Both the position numbers and the translations under genes were made by a program. From IMG/VR virus record IMGVR_UViG_2923360383_000006: DNA of 11,057 bases. One strand, written 5' to 3'. This stretch comes from a virus. Taxonomy: Duplodnaviria > Heunggongvirae > Uroviricota > Caudoviricetes. Below the pieces are notes generated by a model. That model was not told the origin of the DNA and searched no databases. It worked only from the letters and a program-made list of their open reading frames with translations. Below are positions 4,570 to 5,234 of this stretch, in pieces; position 1 is the first letter of the stretch, and each line of letters opens with the position of its first letter.

Positions 4570-4992
4570 TTAAAACGGTATGTTATTCCCGTACGGATCA
4601 TCATTTCCCGCCTGTTGTTTTGCTCTGCTCAGTGCATCAGTAGCCTGCCCCTGTTGGCCTTTTTTGCCGCCCGGTCGCGCCGTTCTCGCACTGATTACGC
4701 TGTCTGCGATAACCTGCCAGCCCTGCCGCGTCTCCCCGTTCTGTCCGGTCCACTGGCTCACCTGCATGTTACCCGCCACGCTCAGGAGTTCACCCTTGCG
4801 GTGCTTTGCCAGTGCTTCGGCCTGTCTGCCAAACGCCAGGACGGATAACCACATCGTCGCCGTTCCGTCATCTGCCTGGCTGCACGGAAGTGGGACCGCC
4901 ATACTCGCCATCGTCATTTGTGTACCCTTGCTGGTGGTCTTTAACTGCGGGTCAGCCACCAGCCGCCCGTAAGCCGCTATCTGTGCTGTCAT
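4570..4992 (-). CDS. ssb: Single-stranded DNA-binding protein (SSB)
   Basis: OB-fold-like N-terminal region (RLVADPQLKTT..., MWLSVLAFGRQAEALAKHRKGELLSVAGNMQVSQWTGQNGETRQGWQVIADSV) parallels E. coli SSB; glycine/glutamine-rich linker; acidic C-terminal tail ending DDPYGNNIPF, like the SSB DDDIPF tip. ATG overlaps the orf81 stop. Confidence 0.8.
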   Translation of the reverse strand: MTAQIAAYGRLVADPQLKTTSKGTQMTMASMAVPLPCSQADDGTATMWLSVLAFGRQAEALAKHRKGELLSVAGNMQVSQWTGQNGETRQGWQVIADSVISARTARPGGKKGQQGQATDALSRAKQQAGNDDPYGNNIPF

Positions 4993-5234
4993 GCTGTCTG
5001 CTCTCCGGTTTTAACGTTGATGGTTGTCACCTGTTCCGCTTCGGCAATCTCCCGTTCTGTCAGCGTGGCAAAGTTTGCAGCTGCCGTTGTCATGAATGCG
5101 CTAATCAGTTCGGGATGTGCTTTCGCATATCCTTCCCCGGCGTTGCGGTCGATGATTTTTATCGACACCCTTAACCAGTGTTCCGTCAAATCAAGGGCGT
5201 GCGATTGTGATTTTTTTATGTGCTTCGCTGTCAT
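4989..5234 (-). CDS. Hypothetical protein (81 aa), co-transcribed with ssb
   Basis: ATG at 5234, stop overlaps the ssb start (ATGA). Lies immediately downstream of the iteron origin. No family recognised. Confidence 0.5.
   Translation of the reverse strand: MTAKHIKKSQSHALDLTEHWLRVSIKIIDRNAGEGYAKAHPELISAFMTTAAANFATLTEREIAEAEQVTTINVKTGEQTA

Follow-up and report, generated by a model that had tools for sequence, protein, structure and literature searches.

The window, a stretch of 11,057 nucleotides (IMG/VR record IMGVR_UViG_2923360383_000006), was found to carry a minus-strand gene pair, consisting of a small ORF of 81 aa (orf81) followed by a gene for a divergent SSB, as the first unit after the iteron origin of an E. 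coli phage satellite. The interpretation that we favour, with a probability of about 0.5, is that this pair forms an origin-proximal replication accessory cassette, in which the biochemical role of orf81 is one that we infer. The orf81-ssb cassette is a common and standard part of the replication module of E. coli phage-inducible chromosomal islands (PICIs), with that of the model island EcCICFT073 included.

Organization of the island

Gram-negative PICIs have been defined by an integrase, an AlpA-type regulator, a pri-rep gene and an iteron origin immediately 3' of pri-rep, the origin having an AT-rich region flanked by two iteron sets (Fillol-Salom et al. 2018, PMC6092414). An integrase, an AlpA-type regulator, pri-rep and an adjacent 3' iteron origin were all identified in the window. 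As this architecture is the one described in that work, the island is, judged by its gene content and gene order, a Gram-negative PICI, and the first-pass annotation was right in calling it a satellite. Its genes (identified as ORFs and with Pfam, PHROG and NCBIfam) are, in order, a tyrosine integrase, an HTH_17/AlpA-type regulator, an Icd-like gene, a DUF4222 gene and a D5_N/DUF5906/Pox_D5 primase-helicase, followed by the iteron origin and then by orf81, ssb, a 68-aa ORF, a ClpP-protease/major-capsid fusion, a DUF1441 TerS-like gene and a 95-aa ORF. The initiator primase-helicase (positions 5522-7354, minus strand) was assigned from Pfam and PHROG matches to D5_N, DUF5906 (SF3 helicase) and Pox_D5, with a match to TIGR01613 for the P4-family primase C-terminal domain.

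The two ORFs of the cassette are present at the positions given in the first-pass annotation, namely orf81 at 4989-5234 (81 aa) and then the SSB gene at 4570-4992 (140 aa), both on the minus strand. RefSeq has the same two genes. A locus 99.9% identical to the window occurs in E. coli HCM-28C-2, where it adjoins tRNA-Ile and carries the same annotation, and in this locus orf81 is named WP_000125504.1 (hypothetical protein) and the SSB WP_000126661.1.

Helper-related genes on the island are the capsid fusion, the TerS-like gene and an RppA-like gene. The fusion is a 637-aa protein (2026-3939, minus strand) in which a ClpP-like prohead protease (residues 31-175) is joined to an HK97-type major capsid domain (residues 336-634), and the island therefore has a capsid protein gene of its own, but neither a portal nor a large terminase was found in the window. 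The 95-aa ORF (1000-1287, minus strand; phrog_1561) is 74% identical to the last EcCICFT073 gene before phoQ, which, going by position, is c1503 (RppA). RppA redirects the helper TerS (PMC6739421), and because of this likeness the island in the window probably redirects helper packaging in the same way.

Two other features were observed upstream of the replication genes. A 228-aa ORF (8957-9643, minus strand) lies between the integrase and the AlpA-type regulator, overlapping the end of the integrase gene, and gave no NCBIfam or PADLOC match; this position is a frequent cargo site in PICIs. Between the Icd-like gene and a YlcI/YnfO gene, the stretch 8159-8231 (plus strand) gave an Rfam match to SymR antitoxin RNA that stays below the threshold (34.7 bits, with a gathering score of 61; E=0.0015). 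This is the region from which immunity RNAs of the P4 type and of PICIs have been reported, and no match to C4 or isrK RNA was obtained when the window was searched with Rfam.

Comparison with EcCICFT073

The prototype island EcCICFT073 resembles the window in having, in the same order, DUF4222, a primase-helicase, an iteron origin, a small ORF, an SSB gene, capsid-related genes and an RppA-like last gene. Its primase gene is followed by a 289-nt gap, an 85-aa ORF (C_RS06990, the orf81 homologue) and an SSB gene (C_RS06995) with a 4-nt overlap. The small ORF is 88% identical to the core of orf81, and the two SSBs are 70% identical. The islands differ in their integration sites, with that in the window lying by tRNA-Ile and EcCICFT073 near phoPQ, and in their capsid genes, which are the ClpP-protease/capsid fusion and the DUF1441 TerS-like gene in the window and a lambda-type capsid and a decoration protein in EcCICFT073. 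A PerC gene, which follows ssb in EcCICFT073, is absent from the window island.

Known work on this model island also bears on the suggestion, made in the first-pass annotation, that orf81 and the SSB might jointly constitute an anti-phage or helper-interference system with an SSB-like or SSB-sensing component at its core. Defence and interference genes are indeed carried by PICIs, many of which have interference genes in the region after the origin (PMC6739421). However, neither orf81 nor the SSB had a match in PADLOC-DB v2 at E<=0.1, the SSB is a plain OB-fold SSB without an effector domain, and the cassette is conserved as a part of the replication module, rather than occupying a cargo position and varying as cargo does. 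Interference by EcCICFT073 was mapped to c1503 (RppA), the deletion of which restored lambda plaquing (PMC6739421), although only c1499-c1503 were cloned and expressed individually in that screen, so that it has no bearing on orf81 or ssb. The c1504-c1507::cat deletion is likewise uninformative on the cassette, since by locus-tag order it lies at the far end of the island, and no published experiments on orf81 or ssb were found in the interference studies of EcCICFT073. A defence function of this kind is considered highly improbable.

Origin of replication

An iteron origin was identified at 5286-5508, between the primase-helicase gene and orf81 and directly 3' of the former. It consists of nine GTGAACAG repeats, which are found in both orientations, with an AT-rich centre. 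The nine copies of this octamer within the interval compare with 0.27 expected in the whole window, and their location between the primase-helicase gene and orf81 bears out the earlier placing of the pair right after the origin. A tenth exact GTGAACAG copy is present at 6794-6801 (plus strand), inside the primase-helicase coding sequence and ~1.3 kb from the origin.

Autonomous replication has been reported for a pri-ori plasmid of EcCICFT073 (PMC6092414). The published clone presumably lacked the orf81-ssb cassette, and as the pri and ori construct replicates alone, the cassette is probably not essential for origin firing; orf81 is thus probably dispensable for basic firing of the origin.

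The probable orf81-ssb transcription unit

The minus-strand junction of the two genes reads ...GGAGAGCAGACAGCATGACAGCA, with the codons ACC GGA GAG CAG ACA GCA TGA CAG. The stop codon of orf81 (TGA, 4991-4989) and the start codon of ssb (ATG, 4992-4990) form an ATGA overlap (4989-4992, minus strand), a signal of translational coupling. The GGAG Shine-Dalgarno sequence of ssb (5003-5006, minus strand), 10 nt upstream of the ATG, lies within the 3' end of orf81, while that of orf81 itself is weak (GAGA). Of 62 related loci, 58 retain the ATGA, and EcCICFT073 has the same 4-nt overlap, so the translational coupling that had been proposed is well founded at the level of sequence. The best explanation of this arrangement is that orf81 and ssb would be a co-transcribed and translationally coupled two-gene cassette.

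The unit ends in an intrinsic terminator (4532-4553, minus strand), predicted from sequence and fold as GCCGGA-GCAA-UCCGGC followed by U6, the hairpin of which begins 17 nt past the ssb stop codon. No sigma-70-like promoter was found in 3900-5600, and for this reason transcription of orf81-ssb is probably achieved by read-through from the primase operon.

A 94-nt direct repeat was also observed at 1923-2016 and 4458-4551, the two copies being 89% identical. Each copy comprises, on the minus strand, an intrinsic terminator and then an almost invariant 73-nt element, GGGTCCTCCCGGTG...GGAAAAAGGCTGGTTTTTGCATTTTCAT, and the terminator stems of the two copies differ by compensatory changes. The copy at 4458-4551 lies just past the ssb stop, its first part being the ssb terminator, and that at 1923-2016 lies just past the stop of the capsid-fusion gene and has a fold z of -3.6. 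The repeat could be a regulatory RNA or a site preceding the next operon.

The SSB protein

The 140-aa product of ssb was found to match Pfam PF00436 over residues 5-99 (E=7e-16, 58.6 bits against a cut-off of 26) and TIGR00621 (58.9 bits against a cut-off of 53.95). As both scores exceed their curated thresholds, the assignment as SSB, made at first from the letters alone, is beyond chance. In the PDB, 26 SSB chains were matched at E<=0.01, with a best value of 3e-11. From its sequence the protein can be described as a bona fide but divergent OB-fold SSB of a satellite-specific lineage which has kept the IPF tip.

Identity to E. coli SSB is 26% (BLASTP), and the two proteins have in common the OB-fold, a flexible linker and an IPF end. 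In E. coli SSB the aromatic residues that stack on ssDNA are W40, W54, F60 and W88, and His55 is located at the tetramer interface. In the BLASTP alignment W54, F60 and W88 are paired with W48, F54 and W81 of the window SSB, so that three of the four aromatics are kept, whereas W40 is replaced by Ala and H55 by Leu. A further difference is the short linker of the window SSB, which has ~35 residues and no Gly/Pro/Gln-rich repeats.

The protein ends in DDPYGNNIPF, which had been described as a canonical acidic tail. This description holds for the IPF tip but not for the residues before it, as positions -4/-5 are N-N in place of the D-D of E. coli DDDIPF. The tails encoded in the 62 related loci were DDPYGDNIPF (21), NEQWGDDIPF (21), DDPYGDGIPF (5), DDPYGDDIPF (3) and DDPYGDEIPF (2), with a few truncated genes, and GDDIPF-type tails (NEQWGDDIPF and DDPYGDDIPF) total 24. 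Since these relatives keep IPF, the tip is conserved and the NN of the window is a less acidic variant. Binding of E. coli SSB to SSB-interacting proteins depends mainly on the Pro-Phe carboxy-terminus of its SSB-Ct. It is therefore plausible that the window SSB engages host SSB partners through its IPF tip, a view slightly weakened by the NN substitution.

No SSB more than 33% identical to that of the window was present in 50,697 phage records, which points to an SSB lineage borne by satellites. SSB has already been counted as a replication-category gene of Gram-negative PICIs, colocalised with the primase and the origin (PMC10111431). As far as annotation goes, both the SSB and its location in PICIs were already on record, and the SSB alone is unremarkable; nothing specific was found in the literature on the function of PICI SSBs.

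The orf81 protein and family phrog_1231

Over its full length, orf81 was found to match phrog_1231 (E=6e-49), its residues 2-80 being aligned to positions 4-82 of the 83-position profile, and no match was obtained in Pfam, NCBIfam or PADLOC. Its earlier description as unrecognised is thus correct for the last three databases, but orf81 does belong to a large family. When 1.84 billion cluster representatives were searched exhaustively with a profile, 639 family representatives were obtained at E<=0.001, each of which stands for a cluster at 50% identity, and most of which are 60-120 aa in length; a word-indexed search recovered only the enterobacterial relatives. All 65 of the distant relatives sampled matched phrog_1231. 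The family is characterized by the motif IDxxFGxGYAKxHPELIAAFMxTAAxDF, with the core GYAKxHPELxAAFMxTAA, which in orf81 is represented by the conserved turn motif G35-Y-A-K-A-H-P-E-L43 and then ISAFMTTAAANF. One member carries an N-terminal GIY-YIG-type (T5orf172/MUG113) domain. A 1085-aa match (P0150) was considered as a fusion member and rejected as a repeat-protein false positive.

The weak GAGA Shine-Dalgarno sequence and the lack of a Pfam family would be in keeping with orf81 being an ORF present by chance in the origin-ssb spacer. However, the median dN/dS of orf81 is 0.17 (33 distinct enterobacterial alleles, 468 pairs), the motif is invariant among the 639 representatives, the AlphaFold2 model is a confident one and RefSeq annotates the gene. 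This conservation already refutes the chance-ORF reading, the probability of which is negligible, and the substitution pattern identifies orf81 as a real gene under purifying selection.

The AlphaFold2 model (pLDDT 88.5, from a 65-sequence alignment) predicts a helical hairpin, in which residues 36-39 form a short turn helix between helices at residues 3-32 and 41-75. The turn of this predicted hairpin is built from the invariant GYAKxHPEL segment. The protein has a net charge of about -1 and no DNA-binding motif in its sequence. No relative of known function was found for orf81 by sequence or by structure; a sequence-profile search of the PDB returned noise only (best E=0.2, to TFIIB), and in a relaxed Pfam scan of 65 family members at E<=5 no family was common to more than four of them. 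The profile and structure searches proposed in the first-pass annotation therefore yielded phrog_1231 but no informative structural neighbour, and they revealed no homology to an ordinary replication accessory, which had been named there as a refuting outcome. With tblastn, orf81 was found in no record of sequenced phages, and in plasmids only in five E. coli 'plasmid' records. As phrog_1231 has no functional annotation, membership gives orf81 a name and does not explain it. Nothing specific on phrog_1231 was found in the literature, and the family, orf81 included, is uncharacterised.

Linkage of orf81 and ssb in enterobacteria

DNA similar to orf81 was detected in 1637 of 5426 complete E. coli genomes (about 30%), and the SSB in 1818 of them. 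Among IMG/VR loci recovered with the orf81 motif, the SSB gene was just downstream in every enterobacterial locus not cut by a contig end. When loci were recovered with the SSB instead, orf81 was directly upstream in 104 of 106 (non-redundant). The initiators of the loci with orf81 were D5-type (85), RepA-type (12) and DUF927-type (7), with two loci lacking orf81, and the capsid modules of cassette-bearing islands also vary. The pair is nearly always found together in enterobacterial satellites, whatever the initiator or capsid module.

The two genes are nevertheless separable. In two loci of DUF927-type (L107 and L108), the SSB gene directly follows the origin, and no orf81-family ORF occurs within 4 kb. 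In some RepA-type islands, a hypothetical gene of 101 aa is located between the orf81 homologue and ssb, overlapping the former by 4 nt; it was observed in E. coli FHI_NMBU_10 (L109, 4339-4644) and in three IMG/VR loci.

Family members outside enterobacteria

The phrog_1231 family mostly occurs without any SSB, and in about 30 loci outside enterobacteria no SSB was found within 5-6 kb of the family member. The genomic contexts of these members are diverse. In two Nitrosomonas loci (L006, L009) an AlpA gene and the family member are followed further downstream by a DUF927 primase. In others a cI/S24 repressor immediately precedes the family member (L021, L100), or the family member is a solitary gene at the edge of a prophage or the neighbour of an integrase (L103, L105). 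It is also seen at the end of the early genes, ahead of a T7-type portal (L101), and behind a family-A DNA polymerase cluster (L020). Outside enterobacteria, no partner gene of the family member proved to be conserved; a conserved downstream partner was considered and rejected, as two neighbours of 154 aa proved to be unrelated.

These contexts favour what we regard as the main rival explanation, in which orf81 is a small effector acting against the host or against a competing or helper phage (by takeover, anti-defence or exclusion) and is not mechanistically linked to SSB, the overlap with ssb reflecting only operon compaction in one enterobacterial lineage. Several of them are moron-like and heterogeneous (L021, L100, L103, L105, L101), with no SSB in any, and the lack of a conserved partner gene points in the same direction, as does the very small, all-helical nature of orf81, which is shared by many phage inhibitors. 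On the other hand, 104 of 106 enterobacterial loci, with three initiator types among them, retain the pair, and 58 of 62 retain the ATGA. In several unrelated elements, too, an iteron origin is followed first by a family member, and no PADLOC match was obtained. An effector role is therefore possible, though somewhat unlikely.

In at least three further, unrelated elements the family member likewise occupies the first position after an origin, with an initiator helicase and an array of iterons immediately before it. In one group (L024-L027) a DUF927 primase and TTGTCGGT iterons precede the family member, which is followed by HK97 capsid, protease and portal genes. In a second (L097) a PriCT_2 primase and a DUF5906 helicase are followed by GTGTGTCAGGT iterons and the family member, before holin and terminase genes. 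In the third (L189, 3163-4001; ENA ERZ25039585 contig_210904) a PriCT_2/AAA_25 initiator and ACCCGCGCA iterons are followed by the family member P0207. This protein of 149 aa has a C-terminal extension ending in ...PVYPEDLPF, an SSB-Ct-like tip, and no SSB gene was found near it in L189. The chance of an SSB-Ct-like ending among 149 proteins is estimated at roughly 0.005, for what is a single case noted post hoc.

Some of the same loci have a bearing on a second alternative, that orf81 is a regulator at the early/late boundary, serving as a co-activator, anti-repressor or copy-number regulator in the manner of the unrelated P4 Cnr and ColE1 Rop. In the window orf81 stands at such a boundary, before the terminator and the capsid operon, and a boundary place is also seen in L024-L027 (HK97 capsid, protease, portal), L097 (holin, terminase) and L101 (portal). 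The helical hairpin predicted for orf81 could, in addition, dimerise into a four-helix bundle. In P4, copy number is regulated by Cnr (ORF106) in conjunction with the alpha primase-helicase. Like orf81, Cnr is a small protein encoded beside an SF3 primase-helicase in an E. coli satellite, and it may be a functional analogue of orf81; it differs in being encoded upstream of alpha, whereas orf81 is downstream of the origin. Homology of orf81 to P4 Cnr/ORF106 (DUF5375) was rejected, with an hhalign probability of 0.2%, as was homology to P4p05. The absence of a DNA-binding motif and the net charge of about -1 also speak against a regulator, and no regulator was matched with any specificity among the folds. 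Such a function is regarded as quite unlikely.

Proposed role and significance

For the replication accessory cassette that we favour, the following course of events may be proposed. Induction of the island would lead, through read-through from the primase operon, to orf81 and SSB in coupled amounts. The SF3 helicase of the island would expose ssDNA, which would be coated by the island SSB, and the IPF tip of the SSB would recruit replisome and repair partners of the host. Within this scheme orf81 would be a small accessory at the origin or the fork, its likeliest roles being that of an adaptor or regulator connecting the initiator helicase with the network of SSB interactions, or that of a tuner of initiation. 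Several points run counter to this interpretation, namely the separability of the pair (L107, L108, L109), the absence of an SSB near family members outside enterobacteria, the many non-enterobacterial members in contexts other than replication and the window tail NNIPF, which is without the two acidic residues.

A more far-reaching and rather doubtful proposal is that the phrog_1231 hairpins make up a new class of small origin-proximal adaptors between the self-loading initiator helicases (of SF3 or RepA type) that satellites and phages encode and the SSB network. In that case the hairpin would bind the C-terminal tip of SSB or present such a tip itself, which would explain the coupling to ssb, the first place after iteron origins and the EDLPF end of P0207. 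Of modest interest as leads are the way in which the family recurs behind iteron origins and, in enterobacteria, its almost obligate coupling to ssb.

Should orf81 do nothing measurable, the cassette would remain a matter of routine annotation. The cassette is carried by about a third of complete E. coli genomes and by the model island EcCICFT073, and if orf81 is a replication adaptor or regulator for self-loading helicases, this would provide a function for a family of 639 representatives that has no Pfam entry. Such a role, if true, would also throw light on the assembly of a satellite replisome from components of the host.
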